Below are positions 2,454-31,800 of a stretch of 41,010 bases of DNA, piece after piece. The stretch is taken from assembly GCA_049999805.1 (NCBI GenBank), contig JBNGIO010006314.1:54834-95843 (forward strand). Reading direction: 5' to 3'. Source of the stretch: Folioceros fuciformis (lineage: Eukaryota). Under the pieces are notes generated by a model. It was not told the origin of the DNA. It ran no database searches and was given only the letters and a program-made list of their open reading frames with translations. The position numbers were made by a program, and so were the translations under genes. Numbering within the stretch: the first letter of the stretch is position 1; every line of letters begins with the position of its first letter.

Positions 2454-2553
2454 NNNNNNNNNNNNNNNNNNNNNNNNNNNNNNNNNNNNNNNNNNNNNNN
2501 NNNNNNNNNNNNNNNNNNNNNNNNNNNNNNNNNNNNNNNNNNNNNNNNNNNNN
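2454..2553. other. Assembly gap (100 N)
   Basis: Run of exactly 100 N. Confidence 1.
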
Positions 2554-3319: not shown

Positions 3320-3393
3320 CTTTAAATCTTGACTATGGGCCAATAATTATGGGTGCTTTAAATCTGGACGATGGGCCAATAATTTTCGGTGCT
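3320..3393. repeat. Imperfect tandem duplication, ~36 bp x2
   Basis: CTTTAAATCT.GAC.ATGGGCCAATAATT.T.GGTG occurs twice in tandem. Confidence 0.8.
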
Positions 3394-3980: not shown

Positions 3981-4018
3981 GGTGAACTCGTGGGAGGGGT
4001 GAACTCGTGGGAGGGGTG
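3981..4018. repeat. Perfect tandem duplication, 18 bp x2
   Basis: GGTGAACTCGTGGGAGGG repeated directly. Confidence 0.85.
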
Positions 4019-6939: not shown

Positions 6940-7370
6940 GTGCCTCCTGGGACCATCATTGCGCAAGGCTGACGGACGAATTGTGTGGAAGTGGAAAAAG
7001 TTTGTCGAGCGGGACCGTTTGTTGGTCCCGCTGAGGACTTTACGCCTGTGAATAGACTTAATAGGATAGGTTTATGATCAGGACGGATCCTGGAGGGATA
7101 ATTTTCCGGGAGCTGTGCCTGTTCAAAACAAAAAGTTGTACATTTTTGTACTTTACCTTGCTCATGCAGGTCCAATTTCTTTACATCAATGAATGTGTAG
7201 TGAAATTCCCAAGAACAAACGCACCAAAATTGTTGGACGTTTTGTTTCGTTCATTGAACAATTCTCGTAAAAACATCAGGCTACGATAGCTACACTTCTT
7301 ACTACTGTTCTTACTTGCTGTAACATATGTTCACCACTTTCTATCAAAACTAGAGCCGCGCACCTGTATC

Positions 7371-10279
7371 CTACGCAGCTAATGCTTCTATGTCACGCAG
7401 ACGGAGAGTTACAGCTCGCTTATGGGCATCCAGGCCTTCAACTTCAGCCATCTTCTCAACAGATGGCCCAAGCAGCTGGAGGCCTTCTTTTGTCAAGGAT
7501 TGCACAGTCATGTACCTTACAAATGAATCCAGGGACACACCAGCATACATCCTTGCGTATCCGTAAGTGGGCAATACATGATTAGTGCCACTGGCATAGT
7601 CACCCACACTCTCTGGTGTCCACTTGCCGAGAAACACAGAACCTGAGAGGAACAATACATCATGTCATTCTTTTCGAAAAGGCAAATGGGAGAACCTAGC
7701 TCGGTATGCCCCTGGTAACCGAATTATCTATCTGGGTTCACTGTTTACCTGCATTCTCCAACTTGTCTAACCACTTCTCAGCATCATCCACGTTAACAAT
7801 GAGGTGTTCTGGTGCATAAAGGTTTGAAAACACACATGCCTGGAAGAGATTGCACCAGTGAGCACAAGCCACTGGCAGCACCAATCTTTGGTCTGTTCTG
7901 CTGTTGTGGGTAAGGGACGAAGAGTTCGGGGGGTACGTAGGATTCCGTACCTCATCCATGTCAGCAGCAATGACTGTGAAACTATGAGCCAGAGCCTGTG
8001 CAGCCGTATCACCTCTGGGAAGAGCATTGCATTGCTTTTCAAGTTCACGCTCAATGGCTCCAATATCCACCTCGCCGACAGCCACTAATACGACCTGACT
8101 GTCAGGGCCATGCTCTGCCTGCACGAGGGTAAAAAAAAAAGTCTTCAATGTAGGCTGAGCAAAAAGGAAAAAAAGAAGCTCTTAGAGCTTGCTGTTAGAA
8201 AAGCTACCTGAGAAAGCAGATCTGCTGCGAGATGAACTGGGCTTGCATGCTTGTCTGCGATAACCAGCACTTCTGAAGGACCAGCTGGCATGTCAATGGA
8301 TATCATTGCTTCACTATTCTGCCAACAAGGAAGAAGAGGTGCCCTTGAGGACAAAACATCCCAGCAGTACAGCCTGGCGGTAGAAAATATTGCCAAAGAC
8401 ATGTTAATGACCTGCAGCAGCATCTTGGCGGCAGTGACATACTGATTTCCTGGCCCCAAAATTTTGTCAACCTGAAGGCAGATCAACCATAACACAAACT
8501 TCAGGAGACAGATGAGGAAGTTACAACAAACGCCATGAGCACCACCACTACACAGCCCTCAGTACATGTAACATTCCTCACCTTGGGACATGATTCTGTG
8601 CCCCAAGCCATGGCAGCAATAGCCTGCAGATTCACTAATATGTAGTCAGTGGATGCTCACAGTGTCTCTACATACAAGAACAGGCAGGACTTCGACACAG
8701 CATGCATAAGGAAAGCCTTGCCTGGGCTCCACCAGCCTTCAGAATATACTTGGCACCAGCCTTTTTAGCACAATACAGCACTTCCTGCATGTTTTGAACA
8801 AGTCTAAGGAGAGAGCTTCAGCCGACTGCCGCTGCAGTTTCCATAAGCAGTGAAAAGATCACATACCGGACATATGGAACCATCAGGCCGAGGAGGAGTA
8901 GCAATTATCACAGTTTTGCAACCAGCAATTTGAGCAGGCTGCACACTAACGACACTGGTCAGCACCTGGAGCGTGAAGGACAGCAACGGCAAACACTAGA
9001 TGGCGATCGTAGAGTCTCACAATGGCCAGCATCAGTGCAGTTGATGGAAGCACAGCGGTGCCTCCAGGGACATACAATCCAACAGAGTTGATACTTCTCG
9101 CCACCCTTCGGCATGATACCCCCTGCAGCAAAGAGGACAGTTTTTTTCGAGTTTAGATTAAGCCCATCAGAAAGCGCTGCCGAAGATTCCTCGTGCCTAA
9201 AATATTAAAAGTGAGCAGCTTGACTCGACAGCCTTGCGCACCATCCATTGTCCTGCCTACCCACTTGCATTGTGCTGACTTCAAGCTGTTGAGACTTTTG
9301 CTGGGCTGCATGGAATTTGTAAATATTGGCATAGGCAACATCAAATGCCGCTTGCACATCTGGATCCAGCTGCACCCGACAAGAAATCACAACAGAATGT
9401 CAGCCCCTAAAGAGTCGTGACTGACAAAACAGAGATGCTCAAAGATAATTCGCGCAGCCTTACCACTGGGTCTGGCAGTTCATCTACGAGGTCGACGACG
9501 TTGTCCAATTTCACCTTATCAAATTTGACTGTGTAGCTGCCAACACGCGAGAAGACGTTTCAACATACCACTCACAGAAACTCGGGAGGAACTCAGGAAA
9601 ATCAGGTGCTGTTTGATACTGGTCTCAAAGTAAGGAACTCACTCTTTCACCGCCGCATCTCCTCGAGTACGAACATCGTCTATGATGGGACGCACCTGCA
9701 CACAGGCAATGGAGACACAAAAGACAACACGCCATGCTTCAGCCACGCCATGCTTCAGCATGAGCCAAATGACATAATGCTGGTTGCCCAAACTCTTGCC
9801 CAGATGCCACTGAGCTCGGAAAGTATCATACCCTGTCATAGACGGTGGTGAAATCTATGCGGGGTCGAGCTTGAAGGCCCTTCAACTCGGAATCGCTCAG
9901 ATCCGCGAACGTATAGCTCCGCAATACAGCCTTGCTCTCATCTCGAACTGCTGCGCGAAGAGATTCAGTGTGGAAACCGAGACTCAACATCCTTTCCCCT
10001 TCCCGCTTCTCCACAGCCAGCAGTCAAGGTCACAATTTGGGTACCTGCGATCTGAGCCACAACACCCACGACCCGGTTGTCTGGAGCCTGAGAATTGACG
10101 GGAAGATGCCCCATCGATGACAGCTGCAGACCTCTACACAACCCAAAACCACTTCCAGAGCAACAGGGCCAGGCTCTGCCGCCCAACTGGGTGCCTGCAA
10201 AGCTGCTGCCTGGAATTCGATTTGGAGCGGTGACAGCACAGGAACCAGCAGCAGGAGAACGCCACACGGATGCTTCCAT
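7371..10279 (-). CDS. HISN8: Histidinol dehydrogenase, plastid-targeted, 14 exons
   Basis: Motifs [95 protein letters not shown]; Ser/Ala/Gly-rich N-terminal exon resembles a transit peptide; splice sites traceable by eye. Confidence 0.96.
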
Positions 10280-13500: not shown

Positions 13501-16500
13501 TGTAATACCCATGTTGACCTTCTCCTGCAACTAGGAAACAAGTCTGCGCTCAGCAGTTCTACTGGAGCAAGCTGCTTACTGTTACTTGCGGACTATGCAA
13601 CCAATGCTGCACAAGTACGGTTTTCATCTAGTGCTGGCTGGGAATCGCTATACACACTGTAATCAGGTATTTTGACTCTAGGAATCAGCAGTCGAGGGGG
13701 AGGTGGTGCAGTTACTGTAGCCTGTTTCAAACTGCCCCTCGAGCAATGATTTTCTTGTGTCCCTGAACCATCTGGCTCATGTTGATGTCTTGGAACCGAG
13801 GTGAAGTAGTACTGACTGTGCGTTTCCTACTGAATCAGAAAGACCATGCCATCAGAGCGTACACAAGTGTCACAAGCATATACGGGGATGGATGGAACTT
13901 TGTTGCTGATCATGTACATTTCAACCTCGGAAGGTTAATTTGCCAGTTTTTTGCACATGCTGTGTGGATGTAGAAGTAACAGATGTTGTGTACTCATGAT
14001 TTGAACCGCTCTCGCTGTCCAGGCTTTGCGCCCATGTTGGGGATTTCACCACATCTGTATTGTACTTTCTGAAACTGCTGTCTTGTAGCCATCAGTCTAC
14101 AACAAATCAAACCACTTTTCTCCGAGAATTTTTAATTGTCATTCAGGTAAGCATCTGCTTGCTGGAGTAGGTCTCAGTGGATGGGCAAGATCAATGATAA
14201 AAGTGTTTTCTTTTTGGTCAGAACATAGTTGGTAAGAAAGAGATGTTGGATCTGGGTCTTCCTGCCATCAGTGCAGACCAGTATTTTGTGAATTTCGAGG
14301 ACCATCGCGTTTTCTCATCAGCATCAGCTGTAAGTTTTTCAGAATTGTATTTGCCCATAAGTTCGGTAGAAATAGGGGTCTAGCATTTCGACCATTGGAA
14401 AATGCCAAGACAATATATTGTCAACAGGCTCATTCTCTGCTTTTGGTTTAGGCTTCACTTCCTGAAGGCGTTTGGGCATCTCTTGAAGAAGGTGTCATCC
14501 CTGCTTCAACTGTGGCTGTAGCAACATGGTTGGATGCACCAAAGACTGTGGGGAAGGTCAAGGATACAAACATTTGTGTGGCAGGAGGTGAACCTTTCTA
14601 ACTGGTAAAAGTGTCAGTTTTGTATTGAAGATTAAGATCTGTTTCAACTAAAGACACCCTTATTGTTACAGAGGAAGTTGGTGTCGACGTGGAATTCAGC
14701 AATCCCCTGCAAATATCGATTGACATTTCATCTGCTAGCCTTATATGCGAATTTAATGTGCCTAGCCATGTGACCCTGGATGGTAACTTTCAAAGGATAC
14801 TAAAAGCTGTCGGTTAATTGGGATGACTAAGATCAAATTTGCTGAATTTGTGCAACCCTGCTTTCAACTTTCTGGTTCTAAGGAGTGATTCAACATCGTT
14901 GAATGCAGGAAGTAGATCCCCTGTGGAGGACAGCACATCAGATGCGAAGGATTCGACAAGAATGTAAGTGACACATCCTTTGTTGGAATAGATAGGGACT
15001 CTTGAAAGGCAGCGTTACAAGGCATTTTCTTCATCCAATGCAGGGCAGAAATGGAACAACCAGTTGAGGCTGAACTAGTTCTCCCCGAACAAGCCTTCTC
15101 CCTGAAACCCGGTGAAAAGGTTAAGGTACTGACCAACTTAACAGCCGTTAAAATGTCTCATCTTTTTCGTCCCGGGACGGTATGGGGAAAATACGAACTA
15201 AGTTGATTTCCTCTCGTGTCACGTTCTTGCAGATCCGATTGAAAGCAAGGCCGGGTAGGAAGGGATTCTTATCAATAGTGGGGGTAAAGTGGATCTTGTC
15301 AGACGTTGCAGTTGGTTACAAGCACTTCACCTTACCTGGAGCAAAAAGACCAGCGACCAAGTCAAAACCAAAGGACCCGCCCCCTCATCAAAGACTAAAG
15401 TTTAGTGTTCTGGAGGTACTTTTGTTCACGTGGAGGTCAAATTGTGGCTTTTCAGGGTGACAAACCTGACATGATGTTGCACATGTTAGAGAATGCCTCG
15501 ACTTGAAGTTTCACTCCATGAATTACCTGCAACTTTGAAGGCTGGAGAGCTGCGTCGTGTTGTGTTAGAACTATTCAATCCATCATCTGCCACTTTGAAG
15601 GTACTTGCTTTTTCCATAAGGTGTCGCACTGGGTTAGGTGCCGACTCAGCCGGTGACCATTACATCGCCTATGCTCTGGACTCTGTGGCAGAATTTCAAG
15701 CTCAAGACAAGCCATCCCAGCTACCTACTGGTTGGAGATCAAGGAGATCTGGAAGGAGAGTTTCCCAGCTGTCTGGAGGCCCAAAAGAACTTTCGACCTG
15801 TTCTAGAAACGATGAATTCTTCACATGATCATTCAAGTACCGAAGGCTTTATTTTCAACTTCCCCAGTGTAAAAGTCCTGCAGAAGCTGTGGATGTTGGT
15901 TTAGACTCAGCAATCTCCTTAAGAAGCAGATCTCTGATTAATAATTGCTTGTGCCGTTTATGCAGGCAACTGTGCTGGAAGGTAATTCAACACTACTTTG
16001 GCCCTTGTGGATACACGCGCGCCATGCTGGTTCGGTGACGATCAAGTCTGTAATCTATTATGAGACTCAGGAAGAGGTTGAAGGGCTGCATTTTCGAACA
16101 GTACGGATGGTCCACAGTCTCCAGGTATTGCTTCAGTATAGAGGCTTGAAGATGTGCATTTGACTGCCTGAACAATACCATTAGGCTTGATCTCATGTTA
16201 ACTAAGGACGTGGCTGTTGTGACTCCAGGTTCTTCCATCCCTTCGAGTTTCTGTTGGTATTTCACCCTGTCCACTACAGCTTCAAAGGTTTTTGTTACGA
16301 TTGGATGTGGAAAATGAACACTCCACTGAGAGTTTCTGGCTTCGCCAAGTGTCTTGCGCTGGCAACTCTTGGTCTTTAGCTCCATTGTTACCACCATTCG
16401 TCGAGCAGAATTCTGCTAGTGGTGACACTCTAAAAGCAGAGTCTGCTGATGTGAGAGCTGCATTTCTTTCAGCTTCAGTTTCCCCTTCCCAATTGCTGCC

Positions 16501-17835
16501 AGCTGGCCAAAAGCTATCACTTTTTTTTCAGCTTGTGGTAAGTGGTTCACAGTTTACTCACCTGTTATTCGGTTGCTGCCCTAATGCCACGGTGTTGTAC
16601 TTGCTACTGAGTCCCATGAAATTAGTGCAGAATTCTCTCTCACATGGTCCGACGAGAGGCACACTTCAAGGGCAAAGTATGGAGGAGATTACGGGTGACA
16701 TAAGATTAGGACCACCCAGTAGTAGAGAACCACTTATTGACATATCGTCTGGGCCCCTGTTTATTTTCCATTTGCGCGAAAGGCTGTATCAACCAAAGCC
16801 CAAGTTGCCATCATTTCTGGAAGAGGTGCTTGATACGTTTGTTTCCGGCTCTTAAGAAGCGTTTGTCGCATGTCATAACTCCATTCGTGTGTCTCACTTG
16901 CAGGCTGCAAGGGTCCAGGCCCCTGAGCCTTTGTTGGATGCTCAGATGGCTGACATTGTGCTCATCTCAGAGCAACAGGACGGCATGAGCACAGAGAAGT
17001 CAGGATCCCCACATAGCCACTTTCACTTTAGTACTCATCATATCTGCCATTCCAGGTGGGCTCACTCAACTAGTGCTTTGTTCTTGACGTGACTGAATAG
17101 TTATGTTAAAAGGTTGTCCTTCTAACCATGCGAACACTGTCTTCCTTCAGTGTGCATGGCTCGCAGCCACTAGTGTGGGTCTTGGAAGGGCCAAGCAACG
17201 CTGTCCACGACTTTTTCAGTCAGCCCTTTTGTGAGGTTAAGTTTGTACTGACCATCAGGAACATCTCCCGTCGTCCAGCATCCGTGAAAGTCGAGACCTT
17301 CGATGCAAATGCCTCACAGCCAAACTCTAGTGTATCCAGCTTGGCTGAAACTCGTGAAGTATTGGGTGGGTGGTCCTTGCTAACAGCTCAGGACGCTCCG
17401 ATATCAGGGCCTACCGCACCTGCGCCCCTCAGAACTCTGTCTCCATCCCTGGATGAGCACGTTCCAAGGAAGATAGCCTCTTGCAGCCCATACATGTGGT
17501 GCAACTTGAGGTCAAAAGTGATACCACATCTGGAGGCTGGGACATCGGTGCAAGTTCCATTGCATGTTGCTTTCTTCACACCTGGTATGTATGATCTGTC
17601 AAGATACAGGATAACCTGGAGTCTGCAAGGAGAGGCATCTCTCCCTGCCCCAGTAGAAAAGCCGTCTCCTAAAACCACTGTCATCACACGATCCGCAAGC
17701 ACGGTTGGACTTCCGGCGGATCTCCCAGAGAACAAGCCTGGTGCAGGTCCTGGAGCCACACGGCGTGACAACGTGGGAGCTGGCCATCCTTGGCTGCTCA
17801 GAGTTCTTCAAGCTAAGCCGGCAGGTACGTTTTAG
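10597..17835 (+). CDS. TRS85: TRAPP III subunit TRS85/TRAPPC8, ~28 exons
   Basis: N-terminus ISPVVMV...LRPFC...VPVRTASDQPYRL; FSEHEAIDHPVACLLVVSS; RKGLKNQIKNLWWRKGK; ESQIRVLADYAFMLRDYELA...DKAWKRYAG; KYGFHLVLAG; C-terminal PGMYDLSRY; consistent GT-AG exon chain. Confidence 0.92.
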
Positions 17836-18370
17836 GAGCCACCATACGCATTTTTTGGCCACCTCTGTTGGAATATTGGCATCCTCTTGTGTGGCGAGCT
17901 CGGGGCTACCATCGAGGTGGCGGTGTATTAAAGCGGGCGGCCTTGACTGGAAATCGAAATTACTTTCTCTTAGAAGACGGTCCATTGTTGTTTCTTGCCC
18001 CCTGGATTCTATTATCTCCACGGTCATCCCAGTTGCCCCTTGGAGCCTCATCTCTTTATCGCCCGCGTTTCGCCAGTGCCTTGAGTCAAAATGATTTTAG
18101 CATTGACATGCACAACACGCCAAGGACTAGAGGGAAACGAATGGTAAAGAAAGTCCGATCAAACAATGTGAAGTGTTCATAGGCGCCTGGGTTGGATTCG
18201 AGTACCTTTACATTGCACGGGATCCCATCTGTTCTATTGTAGATGAGCTACGCTGCGTACACGGTGATCTACCTGGTTTGGATATTGTAGTGACCCGGCG
18301 ATAGGATGCCATTCCAAGCAATGTTGATAGCCGGAACTTTGCGCTAGACCACTCTTCGTCCTGCCAGTTC

Positions 18371-21300
18371 ATGGGCCATGTGCCTGCCAATGCTGATGGT
18401 GTGGTAATGCAAAGTCTGTGGGCATCCTGCACGGGCGGCGCAGAGTGTTGTGTGTCTCATCTTCCAAGAGCGGTGCCTGCGAGATGGCTACATTATGGCA
18501 ACCGGATTCGATGCGGACCCATCCAACAGGTGGGTGTGCAGAGGGTCCTAAGGCAGCTCCAGGTCTCCTCTCTGTGGGGAATCAGACGCCGGCAAAGAAT
18601 CATGCCTCCAGGTGCAGCAGTGTTAGGAGCCCAGCGCTTGCGAGCAAATGGATGGCTGGGGAAGCATTTTTCAGAGATGCTGGTCGGGGAACGGGAGCGA
18701 GAGCCGGAGGTGGAGAGGGATCAGGAGCGCTTGTGGCGACAATTTTTTGTGGACCCTTCTATGTGGTGGGATGAGAGGCGAGGCAAGAAGAGCTCCCGTT
18801 CGCCTGATTTCCGGCGGAAGGGGTCCGGCAAGGTCCTCCGATTAAGTAACTTGTCCAATCCAGCGTGGGTGGATGAGCAGCTCGTTGCTTTGGATGTGCA
18901 GATGGGTCAGGGCGACTCTCCTTCCAACTCGAGGTCGCCGGGTGATTTTGTTCCTGGTAGGTGTGCAGGATTGGTCAAGGGCGTCGGCGCCGTGTCGGCG
19001 GATAGCGTGAGCATTTTGTGTCAGCAGGGGAAGCTTACTGAAGCCGTTGGAGCCCTGGAAGCTCTAGCAAAGACAGACGGGCGTATTTCTCCGTCTCTCT
19101 TGTACACTGTGTTGAAAGAAGGACATGTTTGTAGGGCGACAAGTGCATGATCTCAGTGTGAAACTACGATATGAGTCAAATACGTTCTTGGGAAACCATA
19201 TCTTGTGCATGTATGCATTGGGAGGCAGGCTACAGGAGGCCATGGATGTGTTCACCAGGGTGCACAAACCAAATGCCTTCATGTGGTTTTCCATCATCTC
19301 AGCCTATGCTAAACATGGGAGACCAAATGTGGCCATACAACTGTACAATGAGATGCTGAGCACAGGTGTGGAGCGGGATGCCCACATCTTTGTAGCGGCC
19401 CTTCAAGCTTGTGCATTTGCTGCCGACCTGGAATCTGGCAGGAAAGTGCACTGTGACGTGTTGCAGAGTGGCATTCCTCCTAGCTTGTTTGTTGGCAACT
19501 GCGTGGTGGACATGTATGCAAAATGTGGCCAACTGGACGATGCACCCAGGGTCTTTGACAGTTTGATCTCAAAGGATGTGGTGACATGGACGGCCCTGAT
19601 ATCTGGGTATGCAAATCGTGGCCTTGGCCCAGAGGCGCTGCTTCTGTACGGACACATGGAGGAGGACGGCGTAATCTTAGGTGACCATGTTACTTGTCCT
19701 TGCCTTCTTAAGGCCTGTGCAACCGCCGGTGCCCGAGAAAAAGGCAGGGAGCTGCACTCGCAGATTGTGGAAAGAGGACAACTAGATAACGCACTCGTGG
19801 GCAACTGCCTGGTGGACGTGTATGTAAAATGTGGTGAGCTGCCAGATGCTCGCAGGGTTTTTGACAACCTGTCTGCAAAGGATGTGGTGACATGGACCAC
19901 CCTGACAGCTGGGTATGCAAATCATGGGCTTGCCCATGAGGCGCCGGCTTTGTATGGACAGATGGAGCTGGAGGGCGTGATTGTGGCTGACCATGTTACC
20001 TTGCTGGGCTTCTGAAAGCCTGTGCAAGCCCTGGTGCCTCACATAAAGGCAGGCAGCTGGACTCACAGATTGTGGAAAATGGTCAATTAAAGAACGTACT
20101 GGCTGGCAACTGCCTGTTGGGCATGTATGCAAAATGTTGTGAACTGTCAGAGGCACGCCAGGTCTTTGACAGCTTGGCCACAAAAAATGTGATAACATGG
20201 AATGCCTTGATTGTGGGGTATGTGCAGCAAGGACTCGGCCAAGATTCACTGCACCAAAAAATGGAGGAAGAGGTCCTCATTGTGGCTGACGAGGTTACGT
20301 TTGCTTGTGTTTTGAAGGCGTGTGCAAGTGCTAATTCTTTACAAACGGGCAGGCAGCTGCACTTACAGATTGGGGAAAGAGGGCAGCTACAGAACATGGT
20401 CTTGGCTAACTGCCTGGTGGACATGTATGCAAAACTTGGTGAACTGGAGGAAGCACGCCAAGTTTTTAACAGCTTGGACACAAAGAATGTGGTGACATGG
20501 ACGGCCCTGATTGCTGGGTATGCACGAGAAGGTCTGGACCAAGCGGAACTTGCTCTGTATGGACAAATAGAGCATGAGGGCCTGATTGTGGCAGACGAGG
20601 CCAGTTTTGCTTGCCTTCTTGTGGGAGTGCTGGTGCCTTACAGAAGCGAAGGCAGCTGCACTCACAAATAGTGGAAACTGGACAGCCAGGGAGCAAAGTT
20701 TTGGGCAACTGCCTGGTGGATATGTACGCGAAGTGTGGCGAACTGAAAGAGGCACGCCGAGTTTTCGACAGACCGGCCACCAAGGATCTAGTAACTTGGA
20801 CCGCCCTGATCGGCGAGTTTGGTAGTTGTGATGAAGGTCACAACGCACTAGCTTGCTCTGGGGAGATGTTAGTGGCCGGTGTTCAGCCTGATGATGCTAC
20901 TTTCACTTGCCTTCTAGTGGCCTCCAGTCACGGGGGACTGGTGAAAGAAGGTTGCAAGCACTTCGATTCCATGGTTGAACAGCATGGCATCAAACTTACA
21001 GTTGAGCTTTACAATTGCATGATTGACCTTCATGGGCGTGCAGGCCAGTTAGATGATGCAGAGGACATGCTATTATCATGTGAGAGCCAAAGCAATGCCG
21101 TGGGTATAACGTCTTTGCTGAATGCCTGCAAAAATCACGGAGACATATACAGGGACCAGGTGTTTCGAACGCCTGGTGCGACTGGAGCCTCAGTGTGCAT
21201 TGGCATATGTGCTCATGGCCATTGCCCATGCGGATTCAGGCCGGAGGACCGACGTAGAAAGGATTGAAGCACATAGAATTGCAGCAGGAACTAACAAGAA

Positions 21301-21694
21301 ACCCGCTGTGGCGAGCATGGAGGTGAAACAGAAGGTCCATACATTTTTGGTGGGAGCACAGATATGACCTTGCACTCAAGCTAGAGAGCGTGAATGCTCG
21401 TCTGAAGCGTGAATGTGGGCACGTGCCACGCACAAACTTGGTGTGGAAGCCATTGTCGGAGCAAGAAAAGGAGGATGTGGTTTGTGGGCATGCTGAGAAG
21501 CTAGCTCTGGCTGTCGGTCTTTTGAACACTCCCAGCGGCACACGTGCACTCTGGTGTTAACGAATAATCTACGCACGTGCAGTGACTGCCACTGTGCTAC
21601 CGACATCATGTCAAGGGTTGATAAGGGAGACATTGTTATAAGGGATGGGCACGGATTCGCAGATGGATGTTGCAGCTGTGCGGGTCGACCGTGA
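18371..21694 (+). pseudogene. PLS-class PPR pseudogene with N-terminal PDF motif and C-terminal E1/E2 + DYW:KP 'GRP'-type domain
   Basis: P-L-S triplets spread over consecutive frames; KKPAVASMEV (~21296), CGHAEKLALA (His at 21489), NLRTCSDCH, CCSCAGRP-stop(21692-21694). About six frameshifts (~19120, ~20005, ~20620, ~21150, ~21358, ~21548) plus small in-frame deletions. Start codon uncertain (18371 or 18407). Confidence 0.88.
18731..18883 (+). other. OSB-type PDF motif coding segment inside the PPR pseudogene
   Basis: LWRQFFVDPSMWWDERRGKKSSRSPDFRRKGSGKVLRLSNLSNPAWVDEQL matches the W..FF.nP..WWD.R..K.....PDF..K..g..L.L....P.WV pattern of plant organellar ssDNA-binding (OSB) proteins. Confidence 0.8.
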
Positions 21695-22745
21695 GTTATG
21701 GTGAAGTAGTAGCCAGTGTTGAGCAGGCTGTGACTTGTGGAATAGGGGAGTCGATGTTGCCTGTGAGCAGATATCAGCTGCAGTGGGAGAAGGGGGCTGT
21801 CACACGGGTTCCACTGCAGTACATCCGGTGTATGTACTCTGTACTGGTACTTTTAAATCGTTATTCCTCTGATGTTCAAGTGCACTTGTCCACGACGAGC
21901 TTATTGGTACGAGTCAGGCTGGACTTGTTATGTCTACAGTTTAGGGTATTAGACACGACGACTGGCTGCAGAACATGATGCATGTTCTGTAGACGCCATT
22001 TGGTACGTGGTTGGTCATGTGTAACATTTTGCCGGGGCACCCTCTGCGGAGATGGCATGTGTACTCATATTTTGATAGATTTGCTGGCGTTCTAGTCCAG
22101 GGCTGTCTAAGGCAGGGCTCTCTAACTCGTGGTGAGTGGAGTCTGCGATTTGGAGCTTCACTGACTCGATGTATCTGGATGCTTCGGAATAGACTTCATG
22201 CCCTCTCCGGAGCTGTTGGTCAGTATTTTTAACTGCTTTTGGATATGGTGGAATGCTTCTGGTCCTAAACAACTACCTGTTGAATGGTGGAATGCTTTGG
22301 TCAGTAGATTCAACCCTTTTGGTCATGGTGGAATGGCGTTACAAAATGAATACTCCAATCTCCTTGTTGGGTGCGTATGTAGGAAACCTTTTGTACCTTG
22401 AATGTATTGCTGATAGACCGTCACCTGCACCAAGGCAAAAGTGATTGATTGCCTTCAGTGAACTTTGTTCAGAAGACGCAGAAGAAGACTACAGTCACCA
22501 AGCGGTTCTCCATCTGCAGAGTTCTCCGGAGGTCCAGCAAACTGAGGATAACCCTCCAGACCAGCGACGCCCGCAGATCTCGTGAAGAGGTTGATATGAA
22601 CATGCGTCCCTTAACTCCATGCATATCGTCAATTCGTGAAAGGAAGGGCGTTGCAGGCCTGATCTCATATCTGGCAATCAGCTTTCGCCCTTTGATTCGG
22701 AGGACTGGAATCTGCCTGTCTTCGTTCAAGATTTCAATAACCCGT

Positions 22746-25700
22746 TTATGATGCGGAAGCTAGAGTTTGGAGCTCCCCCGAAACTGTTCCTTGCGGGATA
22801 CCAATTGCTGATAAATAATACCCTTCTGTCATGATTTCTGGTACCAGCTGTTTCAGGCCTGCACGTACATCATCACCCTCCGCTAGCTTGCTATCCCCAA
22901 CCACAAAACTGTGTACCAAACCATCCATGTCCGTCCACCAGCTTTGCCCTGGCTCCTTCCACGCCCCGTTTCCTTTTCTCCTCTCATGCATCTCAAATGC
23001 CTCCTCCCACATTTGGGCACCCTTGTATATGTTCGCCATCGCCACATACGCTCCAGCATTCTTGTCATCTAATTTCAGGGCTTCATGGAATGCATAGCGC
23101 CCTACCTCCATATTCCCCCACTTCCTGCTAGCGCCCAATAAAGTGTGCCAAACTGCATCAGCAGGCTCCACAGGCATTGCCCTGGCCACTGCTAGTGCGT
23201 CATCAAGCTGGCCAGCACGACCCATGAGATCCACCATGCACGCATAGTGTTCGGCAGTGGGAATGATGCCATACTCTCTACTCATGGCCTCAAAATACTC
23301 TTGTCCTTTTTGCACGGAACCAACGTGGCTGCATACTGTGAGTACCGAAAGGAAGGTGATGCCGTCGGGCTGCAGGCTATCCTCTCTCATTCCATGAACC
23401 AAGTCAAAGACAGCTTCACTGTCTCCTTGACGGGTGTATCCGGCAATCAGTGCATTCCATGCGATCATCTGCCTTTCCGGTAGTGAATCAAACACCTTTT
23501 GAGCATCAACCATGCTCCCACACTTTGCATACATGTTTATCAAACTGTTGCCCAGAGCTAAATCATCTTGAAGACCTTGTTCTTCAATCTGCACATGCAG
23601 CTGCCTTCCTGCATACAAGGCTGCCGCACCTGCACAGGCCTGAAGCAGGCAAACAAACGTCACAGAATTAGGGGGCCCAGTACCTCCTTGTTGCATGGCA
23701 CTGTAAAGAGCAAGGGCTTCGTGACCCATGCCCTGCTGGGAATATCCTGCGATCATAGCATTCCATGTCACCACATCCTTGTGCACCAGCCCGTCAAATA
23801 AACTCTGCGCAGCTCCAAGGCTGCCACACTTTGCATACATGTTTATCAAACCGTTGGTTACAAACTCATCGGCATCAAGCCTCTGTTCTCTAACCTGTGC
23901 ATGCACCTGCTTACCCTTCTCCAAAGCCGGGGCTCCTACACTTGCACACGCCTGCAGGAGGCAGACAAACGTTACAGAATCAGGTGCTGTGATGCCCTCT
24001 TCTTGCATAGCACTATAGAGACTGAGGGCTTCCTGGCCCATGCACTGCTGTGAATATCCTGATATCATAGAGTTCCATGTCACCACATCTTTCTGCACAA
24101 GTCCGTCAAACAAACTTCGTGCATCCTCCAGGCATCCACATTTTGCATACATGTTAATCAAACTGTTGACAACAAATTCATCTGCCTGAAGCCCTTGCTC
24201 TCTGATTTGTGTGTGAAGTTCCCTGCCCTTCTCCAGAGCCGGGGCACCGACACTTGCACATGCTTGCAGGAGGCACACAAATGTCAGTGGGTCTGGCGCA
24301 ATGGCCCATTCCTGCATGGCACTGTACAGATTAAGGGCTTCCTGGCCCATGCCCTGCTGGGAATAACCTGCTATGATACCATTCCAAATTACTACATCTT
24401 TGTCAACAAGTTCATCAAACACACTCCGAGCAACCTCCAAGTTGCCACACTTTGCATACATCCTGATAAGACTGGAACCTATGAATGCATCGGTCTGAAG
24501 CCCTTGTTCCTCAATCTGCAAGTGAAGTTGCTTCCCCTTGTCCAAGGCAACAGTACCCAAACTTGCGCATGCCTGCAGGAGCCGGACAAATGTGACGGCA
24601 TCGGGTGCAGCAGTGCCTTTTTCTTGCATTGCATTGTACGCTTCAAGGGCCTCTTGACCCATGCCTTGCTGGACAAGTCCTGCTATCATGCTATTCCAAG
24701 TGACGACATCCTTTTCATCGAGCCCATCAAACACGCTCTGGGCATCTTCCATGCTGCCACACCTGGCATACATGTTCACTAGCCTCCAGCTGATATCCAC
24801 ATCAACATGAAGTCCACGTTGTTTGATCTCTGCATGAAGCTGCTTCCCCTTCTCCAATACTGGGGCACCAGCACCTGCACATGCCTGCAAGAGGCACAGA
24901 AAAGTCACAGAGTTAGGTGTGGTGGTAGCTTCTTCCTGCATAGCGTTGTATAGATGAAGGGCTTCTTCACCCATGCCCTGCTGACAGTATCCTGCTATCA
25001 TGGCATTCCATGTAATCACGTCTTTTTTACCCATTCCATCAAACACCCTCTGCCCATCCTGTACACTGCCACACTTCACATACATGTGCACTAGGCTGCT
25101 ACCAACGACCACATCAGCCGCGCATCCTTGTTCTTCGATCTGTGCATGAAGATGCTTCCCCTTCTCCAATGCCGAAGGACCTATACATGCACATGCTTGG
25201 AGAAGGCACACAAATGTGACAGAATCAGGCACAACACTGCCTTCTTCTTCTATAGCAGAGTACAGGCGAAGGGCTTCCTGACCCATTCCCTGTTGGGAGT
25301 ATCCAGCTATCATCGCGTTCCACATCACCACTTCCTTTTGACAGAATTCATCAAACACAATTCGGGCATCCTCTAGGCTACCACACTTTGCATACATGTT
25401 TAACAAACTGTTGGCTACAAATGGGTCAGCATGAAGACCTTTTTCTACAATCTCTGCATGTAGCGCCTTCCCTTTCCCCAAAGCCATTCTACCCACACTT
25501 GCACAAGCTTGCAATAGAGACACAAACGTGACAGAATCGAGGGCACCAATGCCATCTACTTGCATACCGCTGAAAAGTTGAAGAGCTTCCTGACCCATCC
25601 CATGCTTAGAGTATCCTGCCATCAGGGCATTCCACGTCACCACATCCTTTCTGCCAAGTCCATCAAAAAGTCTCTTGGCGTCTTCTAGGCTGCCACATTG

Positions 25701-28118
25701 TGCATACATGTTTATCAAGCTGTTGGCTACAAACACATCAGCTTGAAGCCCTTGTTCTTCAATCTGCACATGAAGTTGCTTCCCAGTCTTCAAAGCCTCG
25801 GCCCCCAAACTTGCACATGCCTTCAGGAGGCACACAAATGTGACAGCATCCGGATCAACAGAGCCTTCTTTCATACTAGTGTACAAGTGAAGGGCTTCCT
25901 GACCCATGCCCTGCTGGGAGTTTCCTGCTATGATAGCATTCCAGGTCACAACATCCTTGTGCACAAGTCCGTCAAACACGCTCTGAGCATCCTGTATGCT
26001 GCCACACTTTCCATACATGTTCACCAGGCTGCTCCCTACAACTAAGTCACCCTGAAGTCCTTGTTCTTCTATCTGTAAATGAAGCTGTTTTCCCTTCTCT
26101 AAAGCTGCACCACCCAAACTTGCACAGGCTTGCAGGAGGCAGATAAATGTTACAGCATCAGGTATGGTGATGCCTTCTTGTTCCATAGCCCTGAAACAAA
26201 GAAGAGCTTCTTGACCCCTGCCCTGCTGAGAATATCCTGCTATTAGGGCATTCCACATCACAATATCTTTGGCAGGAAGTCCATCAAACACGCACTGGGC
26301 ATCCTCTAGGCTGCCACACTTTGCATACATGTTGATCAAACTGTTGGCTACGACAGCATCAGTCACAAGCCCTTGTCCTTGTATTTGTGTGTGAATCTGC
26401 TTGCCCGTCTCCAATGCTGACCATCCTAGAGCCGTACAAGCCTGCAGGAGGCAAACGAATGTCACAGAATCAGGAGCAGTATTGCCTTCTTTTTGCATTG
26501 CGCTGTAAAGATCAAGGGCTTCCTTAGGCATGCCCTGCTGGAAATATCCTGCTACTAGGGCGGTCCACATCACTGCATTTTTTTGAGGGAAGCTGTCAAA
26601 CACAGTCTGAGCATCCTGCACGCTGCCACACTTTGCATACATGTTTACCAGGCTGCAACCTACAACTATGTCATCCTCCAGTTCTTGTTCCTTTAGCTGT
26701 TCATGAAGATGTTTACCCTTTAGCAAAGCTGAAGCACCCACACTTGCACATGCCTGCAGGAGGCACACAAACGTGACAGAATCAGGTGCAGTGATTCCTT
26801 CTTCCAGCATAGCACTATAAAGGTCAAGCGCTTCCTGGCCCAGGCCCTGCTGGGTATATCCCGCAATCAAAGTGGTCCATGTCACAACATCTTTTTTACT
26901 AAGCCCGTCAAATGAGCTACGAGCATCCTCTAAGCTGCCACACTTGCTATACATGTTTATTATACCGTTGGCTATAGACACATCAGCTTGAAGTCCTCTC
27001 TCTCCAATCTGTGCGTGTATCTGCTTTCCATTCTCCAAAGCAGGAGGACCCACAGTCGCACATGTCTGAAGAAGGCACACAAACGTCACACAATTTGGTG
27101 CAGCTACGCCTTCCTCTTGCATTGCACTGTAGACATGCAGGGCTTCCTTGCCCATGCCCTGCTGTGAATATCCTACAATCAGAGCTGTCCAGGTCACCAC
27201 GGTTTTTTGAGAAAGACAGTCAAATACACTCCGAGCAGTCTGAAGACTGCCACACTTTGCATACATGTTCACCAGGCTGCAACCTACAGACACATCAGAC
27301 TCAAGTCCACGTTCTTCAATCTGCCTGTGGATCTCCTTTCCCATCTCCATGCCTGCGCTGCCTAGACTTGCACATGCCTGAAGGAGGCATACGAACGTGA
27401 CAGCATCCGGCACAATGATGCCTTCTTGTTGCATACTAGTATAAAGGCAAAAGGTCTCTTGCCCCATTCCCTGCTGGGAATACCCTGTCAACATCGCATT
27501 CCATGTAACCGCATCCTTCTGAGAAAGCCCATCGAACACCCTTCGAGCATCTTCCAAGCTGCCACACTTGGCATACATGTCTACCAAGCAGGTGCACAGG
27601 GACAAACTGGGCTCCACCTCACTGGCCAACAAGTCAGCATGGACCTGCTTGCCAGCTCTCAAGCCGGCTCCCCTCGCACAAGCCTGGAGAGCTGCAACAA
27701 ACACATGGGAATCCGGCTTCACACTCGACCTGCCCATCTCATGATACAGCTTCATGGCCTGCTTCGGTTGCCCCTGCCTAACATGAGCAGATATTATGGA
27801 AGACCACATGAAGGCATCCGGACTTGCAACCCCGGTGAACACATCCATCGCTTCTTGTAACCTGGCATGAGCAGCATACATCCGAATGATATGGTTGCAC
27901 AAGAAGGTATCCGACTCATACCCCTGGTCCACAGCAAGAGCATGAACACGGCGTCCCAGAACCAGATCCTTGGTACAAATGCACTTCTTCAACACTGTAT
28001 ACCAAAGAGACTCGTATATTCGGCAGTGGGTCAGCACCAGCATACCCAACGCGTCAACGGCCTCGGCCAGCTGCCCTTGCTGGCATAGCCTGCTAACGGT
28101 CTCAGCTGTTACACCCAT
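22746..28118 (-). CDS. Very long PLS-class PPR protein (~47 motifs) with E1/E2 and truncated WW-type DYW region (E+-like); 5' exons possible up to ~28629
   Basis: Uninterrupted ~1790-aa ORF (first ATG 28118); 15 S motifs (MYAKCG-like), 14 P-L pairs, P2-L2-S2, E1/E2, KEPGQSWWTD..G.VHSFVVGD; ends without HxE or CxxC. Confidence 0.95.
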   Translation of the reverse strand: MGVTAETVSRLCQQGQLAEAVDALGMLVLTHCRIYESLWYTVLKKCICTKDLVLGRRVHALAVDQGYESDTFLCNHIIRMYAAHARLQEAMDVFTGVASPDAFMWSSIISAHVRQGQPKQAMKLYHEMGRSSVKPDSHVFVAALQACARGAGLRAGKQVHADLLASEVEPSLSLCTCLVDMYAKCGSLEDARRVFDGLSQKDAVTWNAMLTGYSQQGMGQETFCLYTSMQQEGIIVPDAVTFVCLLQACASLGSAGMEMGKEIHRQIEERGLESDVSVGCSLVNMYAKCGSLQTARSVFDCLSQKTVVTWTALIVGYSQQGMGKEALHVYSAMQEEGVAAPNCVTFVCLLQTCATVGPPALENGKQIHAQIGERGLQADVSIANGIINMYSKCGSLEDARSSFDGLSKKDVVTWTTLIAGYTQQGLGQEALDLYSAMLEEGITAPDSVTFVCLLQACASVGASALLKGKHLHEQLKEQELEDDIVVGCSLVNMYAKCGSVQDAQTVFDSFPQKNAVMWTALVAGYFQQGMPKEALDLYSAMQKEGNTAPDSVTFVCLLQACTALGWSALETGKQIHTQIQGQGLVTDAVVANSLINMYAKCGSLEDAQCVFDGLPAKDIVMWNALIAGYSQQGRGQEALLCFRAMEQEGITIPDAVTFICLLQACASLGGAALEKGKQLHLQIEEQGLQGDLVVGSSLVNMYGKCGSIQDAQSVFDGLVHKDVVTWNAIIAGNSQQGMGQEALHLYTSMKEGSVDPDAVTFVCLLKACASLGAEALKTGKQLHVQIEEQGLQADVFVANSLINMYAQCGSLEDAKRLFDGLGRKDVVTWNALMAGYSKHGMGQEALQLFSGMQVDGIGALDSVTFVSLLQACASVGRMALGKGKALHAEIVEKGLHADPFVANSLLNMYAKCGSLEDARIVFDEFCQKEVVMWNAMIAGYSQQGMGQEALRLYSAIEEEGSVVPDSVTFVCLLQACACIGPSALEKGKHLHAQIEEQGCAADVVVGSSLVHMYVKCGSVQDGQRVFDGMGKKDVITWNAMIAGYCQQGMGEEALHLYNAMQEEATTTPNSVTFLCLLQACAGAGAPVLEKGKQLHAEIKQRGLHVDVDISWRLVNMYARCGSMEDAQSVFDGLDEKDVVTWNSMIAGLVQQGMGQEALEAYNAMQEKGTAAPDAVTFVRLLQACASLGTVALDKGKQLHLQIEEQGLQTDAFIGSSLIRMYAKCGNLEVARSVFDELVDKDVVIWNGIIAGYSQQGMGQEALNLYSAMQEWAIAPDPLTFVCLLQACASVGAPALEKGRELHTQIREQGLQADEFVVNSLINMYAKCGCLEDARSLFDGLVQKDVVTWNSMISGYSQQCMGQEALSLYSAMQEEGITAPDSVTFVCLLQACASVGAPALEKGKQVHAQVREQRLDADEFVTNGLINMYAKCGSLGAAQSLFDGLVHKDVVTWNAMIAGYSQQGMGHEALALYSAMQQGGTGPPNSVTFVCLLQACAGAAALYAGRQLHVQIEEQGLQDDLALGNSLINMYAKCGSMVDAQKVFDSLPERQMIAWNALIAGYTRQGDSEAVFDLVHGMREDSLQPDGITFLSVLTVCSHVGSVQKGQEYFEAMSREYGIIPTAEHYACMVDLMGRAGQLDDALAVARAMPVEPADAVWHTLLGASRKWGNMEVGRYAFHEALKLDDKNAGAYVAMANIYKGAQMWEEAFEMHERRKGNGAWKEPGQSWWTDMDGLVHSFVVGDSKLAEGDDVRAGLKQLVPEIMTEGYYLSAIGIPQGTVSGELQTLASAS

Positions 28119-28860
28119 GTCACACGGTTCAGAATACACCACCCAAAAAACCCACCAATTCGTCAGTCCAGAAAGCCTGTCCCAGCAACGATCTCACCAC
28201 CCAACTTCGACATTGAATGTGGTTCGTGCAAGATGGCTTGAAAGGACAAGTCCAACCAGTACACCCCGTGATTCGTCCTCTTCTTCATCATCCGCCATCT
28301 CTGCTGGTGGTCCGGATGTTGGAGCGGCCTCGTGGTGCATATCCAGGCTGTCTATTCCCGATTGGAAGTATGCACATGCTCCGGTTCGTGGGCAGCATCT
28401 CCGAGTCACGGTTAGTTGTGCAGAGAGCGCCTGTCGCAGACAGAGATTATCTAAAACGTATTCTACGTCCCATTACCAGCCGTGCTTATCTTACGCCTAA
28501 CACGGGGAATGGCCTGCCCGGTCCTGCCCTCGCTTGGCAAACGCGCGGAAGCTGCGGGGGCTGCGCCTCGGCCTGCGCTGCCGCGTTGATGAGATGGTGC
28601 GAGTGGAGGGGCTGTGATTTAGGCGGCATCTGCAGCGATAGGGGCTTGGTGAGACTGCGGGGAGGTGCTACTTGTCACGAACCCCTCAGCTCGAGCATTT
28701 TGGTGCGTCTGCGGGTTACCTCGCCTGCAGCATGGTACAGGCGTTTCTCTTCAGGGCATGGTGCAAGACTATAAACTGGAGATCGCTATCCAGTGCGCCA
28801 TGTATTTGGGCGTCGGCGATGCACCCGACAGCTGCTTGTGAGTGAGCAAGCGAGGTTGCG

Positions 28861-31800
28861 ATGGCGATGTCGGGCGGGGCTCGGACTCTCCCCAAGCACT
28901 ACCTTGCAGCCAAGTCCAAGAGGCTGAACAAGCGCAGGCAGGCATTTGCGCAAGGCCAGGTTGTTCGGGCAATCCTTGCTGCCGCCGTGCTCTTGTTTGT
29001 ATGGGGCCTGTACCGTGCCTTCTCCTCCTCGTCTTTTAGACCGATTGCCTCTGAACATTATCCGATGCCAGTGTTGTCAATTCCGCGTTTGTATACGGAA
29101 CTGGGGGACAAGGCTCAAGTGGATATTAGCATGAGGGAGCTGTATGACAAGATAGCATTCCAAGATGTGGACGGCGGAGCTTGGAAGCAGGGCTGGGACG
29201 TGCGGTATCGGGGAGATGAATGGGATCAGCTGAAACTGAAAGTATTTGTTGTGCCACATTCTCATAATGACCCAGGATGGATCCGAACGGTCGAGCAGTA
29301 TTACCAAGAGCAATCCCGTCACATCATTTCCACAGTAATTGAAGCCCTGCATAAGGTGGTAAACGTCGTGTTATTTCAGTGGACTGTGACGTGTGGAGAT
29401 GACCGGTGTCTAATGATACAGAGTGTGTGGAATAGGACAAGCGTCGAAAGTTTATTTGGGAGGAGATATCTTACTTGCAGCGATGGTGGATGGATGCTTC
29501 GGACACGGATAAGAAATACCTGACTGACCTGGTGAAGAATGGTCAGCTAGAAATTGTGGGCGGTGGATGGGTCATGAATGACGAGGTGTGGCCTAATTGG
29601 ATCCAATTCAAATGAATCATGTGATTTCCGTCGGGTATTTTTTGTGTGGTAGCTGACCCAGTGCGTCTTTCAGGCAAATTCACATTACTTCGCAGTCATT
29701 GAGCAGGTTATACTTTACGAGATTCTCCGTTACGCTTCTTTTACTTGGCTGAGCAAGTATCTTGTCTGGTTCTGGAGTAGGTTGAATGCTCCTAACGCTC
29801 ATCTTCTCCTCTCTGCAGATGACGGAAGGGAATTTGTGGTTGTATGACAATCTGGGCGTCACTCCAAAGAATGCTTGGGCCATCGACCCCTTTGGATATT
29901 CGCCTACAATGGCATATCTTCTAAAGAGAATGGGCTTCAAGAACATGCTCATTCAAAGGGCTCACTATGAGGTGAAGAAGGCACTCGCAGAGGAAAAAAA
30001 CCTTGAGTTTATATGGCGCCAAAGCTGGGACTCTGGGAATACTACAGATATTTTCTGCCATATGATGCCGTTTTACAGTTATGATATCCCGCACACCTGT
30101 GGTCCTGATCCGGCTGTCTGCTGTCAGTTTGACTATTGGCGCTTACCTGGCAAAGGTGCTGCCCAGTTCTGTCCATGGGGCAAAAACCCCATTGAGATCA
30201 ACGCACAGAATGTGCAAGAAAGAGCCGAATTGCTCCTTGATCAGTATAGGAAAAAATCAACTTTGTACAGAACTAACTCGTTGTTAGTACCATTGGGGGA
30301 TGATTTTCGCTATATCACATCACAAGAAGCAGAGCTGCAGTACAGCAACTACCAAGCAATTTTTGACTATATTAACTCACATCCTGAACTGAAGGCAGAA
30401 GCACAGTTTGGGACTTTGGAAGATTATTTCACATCATTGAGATCCGAAGTAGCGGAAAGGAGTGGACGGAGAGACTCCAGTCCCCTGGTGCTGCCTGGCT
30501 TTCCTGTTCTCTCTGGTGACTTTTTCACCTATGCAGACAGGGAGAAAGATTACTGGAGTGGGTATTACGTCTCAAGACCTTTCTTCAAAGCAGTTGATCG
30601 TGTGTTGGAGCAGACCTTGCGTGCTGCAGAAATGCTGTTTGCGTTTTCTCAAGCTTTCTGTCGGCGAACGGATTACACCATCTTTCCATTATCCTTCAGT
30701 GAACGTCTTGTGACAGCTCGACGGAATCTGGCTTTGTTTCAGCATCATGATGGAGTGACTGGGACAGCCAGAAACCATGTTGTCCAGGACTATGGAAATC
30801 GCATGCACACATCCCTCAGCGATCTGCTCCAATTTATGAGCTCCAGTGTGGCTGTCCTCTTGCACAAGGGGGAGTGCAATAGTATGTCAACAGATTTCTT
30901 TGAAGCAGAGCAGAAAAGAACACAGCACGATGTTCTGCCTTCCAAGTTAGTGATTGACATGAAGGAGGATGCATTTGTTCGTCGAGTCGTTGTCTTCAAC
31001 TCTCTTGAAAGAGCCGTTGAGCAGGTGGTGACAGTTGTGGTAAGTGACCCCGTTGTATGTGTATTTGACTCCGAGTGGACTCCAATTAAAAGCCAGGCTA
31101 GCCCAGATTGGCAAGTAAAATCTCATGGACTCTCCACTGGCAGGCATAGGCTTCATTGGCAAGCTTTTGTTCCTCCAATGGGACTGCAGACTTATTTCGT
31201 TGCAAAGTTTGATCATAAGGATTGCAAGGTTGCCTCTCTCGCGAGCTTGCAGGTGTTTAATGGTCCACCAGCATTCGCATGTCCCCCTCCTTATACCTGC
31301 GTCCCTGGACATGGTGACGAGACAGAGATAAAGAATCAGCATGTGACAGCTGCGTTTAGCACTAGTGATGGTTTGTTAAGGCGCATCACTATGGATGGCG
31401 GTCCAGACCTAGTGGTGGAAGAGGAGGTTCGTGCTTATTCTAGTCGAGGCAGTGGTGCGTATCTGTTCCGGCCTACGGGTGAGGCCACATCAATTGTCCG
31501 GCAGGGTGGGCTTGTGTTGGTGACTGTAGGCCCAGTAATGCAAGAGGTGTACACCGAACCTCGGACAATCTGGGATAGTTACCCGCTAGTTCAAAGTGCT
31601 CGCCTCTACAGTGGAAAATCCGTGCAGGCAAATGTAGTTGAGATAGAGTACCATGTTGAGTTTATGGAGAATCAATACAACAACAAGGAGCTGATTGTCC
31701 GCTTTAATACTGGGCTTAAGACGGACAGGGTGTTCTACTCAGACTTGAACGGATTTCAGACCATCAGACGACAGACTTATGACAAAATTCCAACGCAGGG

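Follow-up and report, generated by a model that had tools for sequence, protein, structure and literature searches.

The 41,010-nucleotide stretch of Folioceros fuciformis DNA analysed here (contig JBNGIO010006314.1, positions 54,834 to 95,843 of the forward strand; "the window" below, in whose own numbering all positions are given) contains, at 18371-21694 on the forward strand, the remains of a gene in which a PDF motif, the motif of the single-stranded DNA (ssDNA) binding OSB proteins, stands in front of a PLS-class pentatricopeptide repeat (PPR) array and a DYW:KP deaminase-like domain. We consider it highly probable that the parts are correctly identified and that the domain order is presequence, PDF motif, linker, PLS array, E1/E2 and GRP-type DYW:KP domain. 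As an explanation of the locus as a whole, we regard a pseudogene of a nuclear PDF-PPR family of editing type, joined to an inferred helper mechanism for the motif, as probable. The parts of the gene are as follows.

18371..18718, forward strand: putative N-terminal presequence, from the first ATG to the PDF motif in the same frame; no Pfam match, poorly conserved
18719..18895, forward strand: OSB-type PDF motif of about 59 residues, delimited by a hidden Markov model (HMM) built from OSB proteins only
18896..18994, forward strand: linker of about 33 residues from the PDF motif to the first PPR-like helix, spanned by a BLASTP high-scoring segment pair (HSP) with P0147
18995..21147, forward strand: PLS-class PPR array, with successive reading frames 2, 0, 2 and 1 (Pfam, tblastn)
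21148..21367, forward strand: E1/E2, closing with the KP signature KKPAVASMEV (21296-21325) instead of a PG box (Pfam and reading)
21327..21694, forward strand: DYW:KP deaminase-like domain of GRP type, cut by two frame changes (Pfam DYW_deaminase)
21489-21497, 21578-21592, 21683-21691 and 21692-21694, forward strand: the DYW:KP marks HAE, CSDCH and GRP and the stop codon, by sequence reading

The PDF motif and the gene that carries it

The 5′ part of the gene lies in a stop-to-stop open reading frame (ORF) at 18305-19150 (+), with its first ATG at 18371, that includes ...LWRQFFVDPSMWWDERRGKKSSRSPDFRRKGSGKVLRLSNLSNPAWVDEQL...; from the PDF stretch the frame leads without a break to ...LCQQGKLTEAVGALEAL..., where the PPR region starts. 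Pfam does not include a PDF model, and a Pfam scan of this ORF accordingly returns no match over the PDF-like stretch. In the available text of PMC6963530 the motif is defined as about 50 residues with a conserved Pro-Asp-Phe signature, which here corresponds to P30-D31-F32 of the segment encoded by 18716-18910. When these 65 residues served as a phmmer query against 1.84 billion representative proteins, 440 proteins matched at E<=1e-3, 76 at E<=1e-10 and 9 at E<=1e-30. Details were taken for the best 150 of the 440, many of which had 2-12 matched stretches, and the Pfam cut-off applied was E<=1e-5 for 28 of these proteins and E<=1e-6 for the other 122. An SSB/OB-fold domain (the OSB architecture) was found in 31 of the 150 (4 of the 28 and 27 of the 122); the rest comprised 10 proteins with PPR domains, 1 kinesin, 1 protein with two odd weak matches and 107 without any Pfam domain.

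The initial annotation had named the stretch an OSB-type PDF motif from the DNA letters, and the OSB-only HMM bears this out. Built from 52 PDF segments of 31 SSB-positive proteins (seed P0144), with PPR proteins excluded, this HMM was scored against the 841 six-frame window ORFs of at least 30 residues: ORF 18305-19150 reached 72.2 bits (E 1.1e-21), with HMM positions 2-60 of 62 aligned to ORF residues 139-197, or nucleotides 18719-18895. The second-best ORF in the window scored 5.2 bits and the best of 5000 shuffles of the ORF 9.0 bits, so that the window contains a single PDF match by this measure. In an alignment of 41 sequences (A1), the window PDF retains all nine invariant columns (W7, F11, P14, W17, D19, R21, K24, P30 and W51) and eight of the nine near-invariant ones, hence 17 of 18 conserved positions overall. 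Judged by its sequence, the segment is genuinely homologous to the PDF motif of OSB proteins. The alternative is a stretch of non-coding or transit-peptide sequence that resembles the motif by chance; the empty result of a standard Pfam scan would fit it, but the distance between the HMM score and those of both the shuffles and the next ORF, together with the 76 database matches at E<=1e-10, makes it exceedingly improbable. We rejected chance resemblance as refuted by the phmmer and HMM scores.

Proteins of the AtOSB1-4 family share with the window gene the same motif of about 55-60 residues, including its W, F, P, WWD, R, K, PDF, K, LW, P, W and L positions. As described in the available text of PMC6963530 and PMC13393729, however, OSB proteins consist of an OB-fold-like domain followed by at least one C-terminal PDF motif, whereas the window PDF is N-terminal, has no OB fold beside it and precedes a PPR array and a deaminase-like domain. 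Pfam gave no SSB/OB-fold match in ORF 18305-19150 even at E<=1, and because no OB fold accompanies the PDF motif, the locus carries the motif without being an OSB gene.

Behind the PDF ORF, the gene continues through six overlapping ORFs (19116-20015, 19991-20671, 20578-21267, 21122-21367, 21327-21560 and 21497-21694). Pfam places PPR, PPR_2 and PPR_1 domains in the first three, with E values of 1e-10 to 1e-36, and DYW_deaminase in the pieces at 21327-21560 (E 8.4e-9) and 21497-21694 (E 1.5e-11); its E_motif match on the fragment at 21122-21367 (E 5.6e-6) has 27.0 bits, just below the cut-off of 27.3. Tandem PPR motifs are followed by E1/E2, as is the criterion for the PLS class. The terminal domain combines HxE...CxxC(H), KP in place of PG, an Ala within HxE, a terminal GRP and three missing residues; in a PDB sequence search, the PG-type DYW structures 9kfx, 7w86 and 7o4e align with it across a 3-residue gap located before H-G-F. 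We assign it to the KP/GRP type because KKPAVA, HAE, CSDCH, GRP and this gap match the features given in the available text of PMC9478123. According to that text, such marks characterise DYW:KP domains, GRP being one of the two variants known from hornworts; three residues conserved in PG domains are missing from most KP domains, and U-to-C activity has been demonstrated for synthetic consensus proteins only. By these marks the source would probably be the nuclear genome of a hornwort. The hornwort PPR-DYW:KP proteins of GRP type, on which the synthetic editors KP2 and KP3 are based, resemble the locus in their PLS array, E1/E2, KP, HAE, CxxCH, GRP and a length shorter by three residues; they differ in that an N-terminal PDF is absent from their descriptions in the available text of PMC9478123, and the window copy has six frame changes.

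That the PDF motif and the PLS-PPR/DYW:KP body are parts of one gene, as had been proposed at the outset, is supported by the ORF that the two share, by a single collinear BLASTP HSP of 131 residues between the window ORF and Pteridium protein P0147, which takes in the PDF motif, the linker and the first PPR helix, and by the frame of the upstream TRAPPC8 ORF, which has closed at 17835.

Frame changes in the window copy

The reading frame of the gene body changes six times.

19116..19125, forward strand: frame change 1 (frame 2 to 0), SLLYTVLKEG followed by KKDMFVGRQVH; crossed by X1 contig 19024-19253
20000..20010, forward strand: frame change 2 (frame 0 to 2); X1 and X2 contigs 19750-20182
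20611..20620, forward strand: frame change 3 (frame 2 to 1); X1, X2 and X3 contigs 20496-20855
21145..21152, forward strand: frame change 4 (frame 1 to 2); contigs 21109-21510 (X2) and 21111-21510 (X1, X3)
21345..21365, forward strand: frame change 5 (frame 2 to 0), near a T5 run at 21344; contigs as for frame change 4
21535..21545, forward strand: frame change 6 (frame 0 to 2); X2 contig 21483-22370

Side-by-side translations put the approximate sites at 19120, 20005, 20615, 21148, 21350 and 21540, with net shifts of +1, -1, -1, +1, +1 and -1. With the neighbouring PPR protein and the intact homologues P0130, P0172 and P0202 as queries, tblastn follows frame 0 over 19077-20006, frame 2 over 20009-20620 and frame 1 over 20611-21147. 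The frame changes are not introns, because homology picks up again within a few codons each time.

We compared the locus with contigs of three public runs (X1, X2 and X3) from two studies; X1 may be the assembly's own sample. Contigs identical to the window, with 0 differences, 0 gaps and no indels, cover the pieces 19024-19253 (X1) and 19750-20182 (X1, X2), and further identical contigs cover 20155-20498, 20496-20855 and 21109/21111-21510 in all three runs, and 21483-22370 in X2. Of the six frame changes, X2, which comes from a different study, also has five, and frame change 1 is seen in X1 only. X2 may be either RNA or DNA, its contigs covering the intergenic 21708-22792 and not 16500-18452.

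The locus at 18371-21694 (+) is a pseudogene. The initial annotation had already described this copy as broken, and the six frame changes, five of them present in the X2 contigs of another study, substantiate the description; these changes lie between 19116 and 21545, and the window copy has lost the capacity to encode the enzyme. An active gene, in which the frame changes would be assembly errors or short introns, is very improbable. Homopolymer runs of five do lie near two of the six junctions (at 21130 and 21344), and it is at such runs that long-read assemblies err by indels, but the other four junctions have none nearby, the junction zones are matched without a difference or gap by contigs of three runs and two studies, and the quick return of homology leaves no space for introns. 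Contig identity across the junctions and the uninterrupted homology led us to reject assembly error.

PDF-PPR proteins in other plants and in the source organism

The supposition of the initial annotation that a family of such proteins exists gains from intact PDF+PPR(+DYW) relatives in Sphagnum, Diphasiastrum, Selaginella, Adiantum and Pteridium. A search among proteins of 526-1675 residues, scored on the PDF region of P0130, recovered 34 proteins, of which 34 of 34 have PPR Pfam domains and 19 of 34 have PF14432; all named matches are from Diphasiastrum complanatum or Sphagnum species. Among the PPR-positive phmmer matches, the complete order of PDF, PLS array, E and DYW is present in P0130 (KAJ7558666.1, Diphasiastrum) and P0146 (CAM6033764.1, Sphagnum compactum). 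The others include P0098 from Selaginella, which is named 'At3g09040-like', P0018 from Adiantum, P0107 from Adiantum nelumboides, and P0147, P0096, P0093 and P0143 from Pteridium. In 44 of 44 PPR-class proteins the PDF motif is N-terminal (start residues 4-227), with one copy in 35 proteins, two in 7 and three in 2. No seed-plant PDF-PPR protein is among the best 150 of the 440 matches. Judging from these comparisons, the placing of a PDF motif in front of a PLS-PPR array is old and is widespread among non-seed land plants.

As in the window copy, the Sphagnum and Diphasiastrum PDF-PPR-DYW:PG proteins (P0146, P0130) and the Selaginella, Adiantum and Pteridium PDF-PPRs, all of them unannotated as such, carry their one to three N-terminal PDF motifs just before the PLS array. 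Unlike the window copy, these proteins have open reading frames and, where the DYW domain is complete, one of canonical type (HSE, PG box, DYW end), and the linker from PDF to PPR modelled for P0146 has about 10 residues as against about 33 in the window. The marks HSE...CxxCH occur in 15 of the 44 PDF+PPR proteins and a DYW/NYW end in 17, and every complete DYW domain among those recovered is of the canonical C-to-U (PG) type. The PDF motif is not specific to U-to-C factors, because the complete DYW domains elsewhere are of PG type. The proposal that the module is a feature of KP/U-to-C factors thus fails on these counts, with HAE in 0 of the 44 and many of the proteins from the moss Sphagnum. 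Among the PDF-PPRs seen here, the KP type is represented by the window copy alone; the motif is combined with a U-to-C-type (KP/GRP) domain in this copy and with a C-to-U (PG) domain elsewhere.

In an alignment of 30 Sphagnum and Diphasiastrum proteins (A2), a conserved ...M.PGTVQ...F.WN... segment comes right behind the PDF motif and leads to the first PPR motif. In the proteins of the window, of ferns and of Selaginella, the linker after the PDF is longer and unrelated to the A2 segment. There may be two subtypes of PDF-PPR junction.

A FastTree phylogeny of 162 PDF segments over 59 columns is largely without resolution. PPR-linked PDFs group in it (7 label changes, compared with a mean of 32.7 after shuffling), yet they do not form one clade, and a single origin and several origins of the PDF-PPR combination cannot be told apart in this tree. 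The highest identity of the window PDF to any other is 53%, to P0004.

For the source organism, we placed contigs of the three runs on the locus at a likeness of at least 90%, which yields summed depths that are not copy numbers: these are 363 (X1), 592 (X2) and 662 (X3) in the PDF bin at 18670-18886 and 260, 378 and 467, respectively, in the linker bin at 18887-19103, as compared with flanks of 7.5-12 for X1 (7.5-14 for X1 and X3) and about 34 for X2. The summed depth of the look-alike contigs climbs only from about 18453-18669 on, within the presequence region. Alternative letters are carried by several distinct contigs, for example by 5-7 contigs at 18887. These observations hint at many paralogues in the source organism with a common PDF motif, linker and PPR start.

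By the same placement, summed depths over the array itself reach 5189-9349 at 19321-19537 and 2382-6180 at 20406-20622, with flanks at about 7.5-34, and many contig 'joints' connect different PPR repeats. Depth and joints together bear the signature of a PLS-PPR family that is very large and has recently expanded in the source organism.

A member of the PPR class also lies next to the pseudogene, on the reverse strand and convergent with it: an unbroken PLS-class PPR ORF of 1815 residues at 22746-28193 (-). Its N-terminal PPR region is 52% identical to that of the pseudogene; it ends in E1/E2 and a PG-type box (...WKEPGQSWW...VHSFVVGD...), with no DYW domain after it and no PDF motif upstream.

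The PDF-PPR junction in the window might be a one-off local chimera, for instance a PDF exon caught beside a decaying PPR gene. That the adjoining paralogue lacks a PDF motif would agree with such an origin, as would the single PDF match in the window and the fact that no intact KP-type PDF-PPR protein was recovered. We nevertheless hold it to be quite improbable: the proteins of ferns, lycophytes and mosses show a collinear architecture and spacing, and the summed depths of the PDF and linker bins exceed those of the flanks in all three runs. Descent from a PDF-PPR family is the reading we retain.

Two proteins carry the motif outside both the OSB and the PPR context. P0001 from Kingdonia uniflora (1160 residues) has 12 matched stretches and no Pfam domain, and in P0051 from Coptis chinensis (1526 residues), a protein with a kinesin motor, PDF motifs lie on the N-terminal side of that motor.

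Proposed role of the PDF motif, and neighbouring genes

AlphaFold2 (AF2) predicts the window PDF, from a 41-row alignment, with a mean predicted local distance difference test score (pLDDT) of 90.3, as a helix-strand-strand-helix unit, a compact arrangement of helix, hairpin and helix: a helix at residues 2-12, short strands at 17-19 and 32-34, and a helix at 50-64. The AF2 model of full-length P0146, from a 30-row alignment, has a mean pLDDT of 70.3, with residues 1-88 disordered (pLDDT below 50); it places a helix-strand-strand-helix unit at 91-146 and the first PPR helix from 157, about 10 residues further on. As this model comes without an inter-domain error map, it reveals the folding of the PDF beside the array and not its packing.

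A PPR array and its RNA run parallel to each other: the N-terminus of the protein points to the 5′ end of the RNA, and the DYW domain comes to lie at the base to be edited. Because the N-terminal PPR motifs thus face the 5′ side, a PDF module in front of them would sit directly 5′ of the PPR footprint. There it could add a sequence-independent grip on single-stranded nucleic acid, the partner being either the target RNA or the ssDNA of the nucleoid or of a transcription bubble, and the outcome would be a higher affinity or editing brought near nascent transcripts. That the PDF motif is such a nucleic-acid-binding helper of a PPR editing factor is a tentative proposal, somewhat short of an even chance, which draws on what the available texts say of OSB proteins: in AtOSB1, the PDF motif on its own suffices to bind ssDNA (PMC6963530), and PDF domains are viewed as the chief ssDNA-binding part of OSBs (PMC13393729).

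It would be an alternative for the PDF of PPR proteins to be a module for protein-protein contact or localisation that does not touch RNA, docking onto OSB-coated or other nucleoid components or mediating oligomerisation. The contexts of the motif are very diverse, with up to 12 copies and no other Pfam domain in P0001 and a kinesin in P0051, and this spread fits a generic adaptor; the invariant positions are moreover mostly aromatic (W, F) and may just form the core of a small domain. On the other side stand the sufficiency of the AtOSB1 motif for ssDNA binding and the conserved R21, K24 and K35, which would suit nucleic-acid contact. We think this alternative unlikely, if less so than the other rival explanations considered here, and give the nucleic-acid-binding helper a modest preference.

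A number of points weigh against the picture of a PDF-bearing editing family with a nucleic-acid-binding helper. The helper role itself is inferred by analogy with OSB1, and no structural analogue backs a nucleic-acid-binding fold in Foldseek or VIA-align: Foldseek of the PDF model against the PDB had no match at E<=0.001 (the best reached E 3.7), and a wide VIA-align search gave a flat list with a best Z of 3.3 (rmsd, the root-mean-square deviation, 3.1 over 48 aligned residues). A PDB sequence search with the PDF likewise had 0 matches at E<=1, and ESM Atlas contained no usable match. In the window PDF itself, W42, the near-invariant W of 'LWL', is an R. The tree does not place the window PDF with the PPR-linked PDFs, and its nearest rows by path are OSB PDFs. 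In alignment A2 the PDF contains 21 of 24 invariant columns, a conservation that is partly inflated because the set was retrieved via the PDF region. Finally, no intact KP-type PDF-PPR was recovered among the 44 proteins, an index search with the N-terminal ORF of the window scored none of the longer proteins, and one with residues 30-95 of P0004 returned only P0004 itself and the transcript P0202, again with no intact protein of that type; because HAE is missing from all 44, the link between the PDF motif and U-to-C factors rests on one broken copy and the indirect hint from depth.

The usual description of PLS-PPR editing factors is that of a PPR array and E/DYW domains, and in seed plants their helpers (MORF, ORRM, OZ) act in trans. 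The likeness of a PDF motif to MORF/RIP and ORRM proteins would be one of possible functional analogy only, as an accessory part that raises RNA binding; there is no sequence kinship, and the PDF is fused in cis. MORF proteins are described in the available text of PMC13386178 as separate polypeptides found in seed plants only. Because MORF is confined to seed plants and the PDF-PPRs seen here come only from non-seed plants, a built-in helper is an attractive reading. Extended to its limit, it would make PDF-PPR fusions an overlooked ancient class of editing factors in non-seed plants (hornworts, Sphagnum, lycophytes and ferns), whose cis-fused helper PDF would grip single-stranded RNA 5′ of the footprint, or nucleoid ssDNA, for PG and KP domains alike, and so make editing efficient or co-transcriptional without MORF. 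We put this forward as a speculation that is doubtful in its full form.

The literature searched (PDF motif, OSB, PPR, DYW) contains no description of a PDF-PPR fusion in its available text; a prior mention elsewhere is possible. The words PPR and pentatricopeptide are absent from the available text of a 2026 study of OSB evolution (PMC13393729), as are OSB, PDF and 'single-stranded' from that of a survey published in 2026, which covers the editing factors of 364 genomes and has a section on domain fusions (PMC13386178). OSB and DYW occur together, in the literature searched, only in an Arabidopsis localisation survey.

These comparisons reveal that organelle ssDNA-binding proteins and numerous PPR proteins of editing type, from mosses, lycophytes and ferns and apparently also from hornworts, have a conserved module in common, N-terminal in the latter, and that use of the PDF motif extends beyond OSB proteins. 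This raises the question of how sites may be recognised efficiently without MORF, and whether editing could be coupled physically to the nucleoid or to nascent RNA. The PDF motif would also be a candidate accessory domain for synthetic PPR editors of both the C-to-U and the U-to-C kind. The interest lies in the family and not in the dead copy of the window, and the objects of study would be intact paralogues or the Sphagnum and Diphasiastrum proteins.

The remaining features of the window surround the pseudogene and the convergent PPR gene. Upstream, 16223-17835 (+) holds exons of a gene whose ORF at 17110-17835 includes a TRAPPC8 C-terminal Ig-like domain (PF24542, E 6.6e-12); its frame closes at 17835, and the first ATG of the PDF-PPR gene, at 18371, follows 535 bases downstream. 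A GH38 alpha-mannosidase gene (Glyco_hydro_38N, Alpha-mann_mid, Glyco_hydro_38C) occupies 28846-32584 (+), and one of its exon-like ORFs is unusually long, with 932 residues (29786-32584). Retrotransposon remnants lie toward both ends of the window: at 2-523 (+), a fragment that by reading is the C-terminal part of a copia-like polymerase and has no Pfam match at E<=1e-4, and at 37618-38118 (+), a GAG-pre-integrase ORF (PF13976, E 2e-11).

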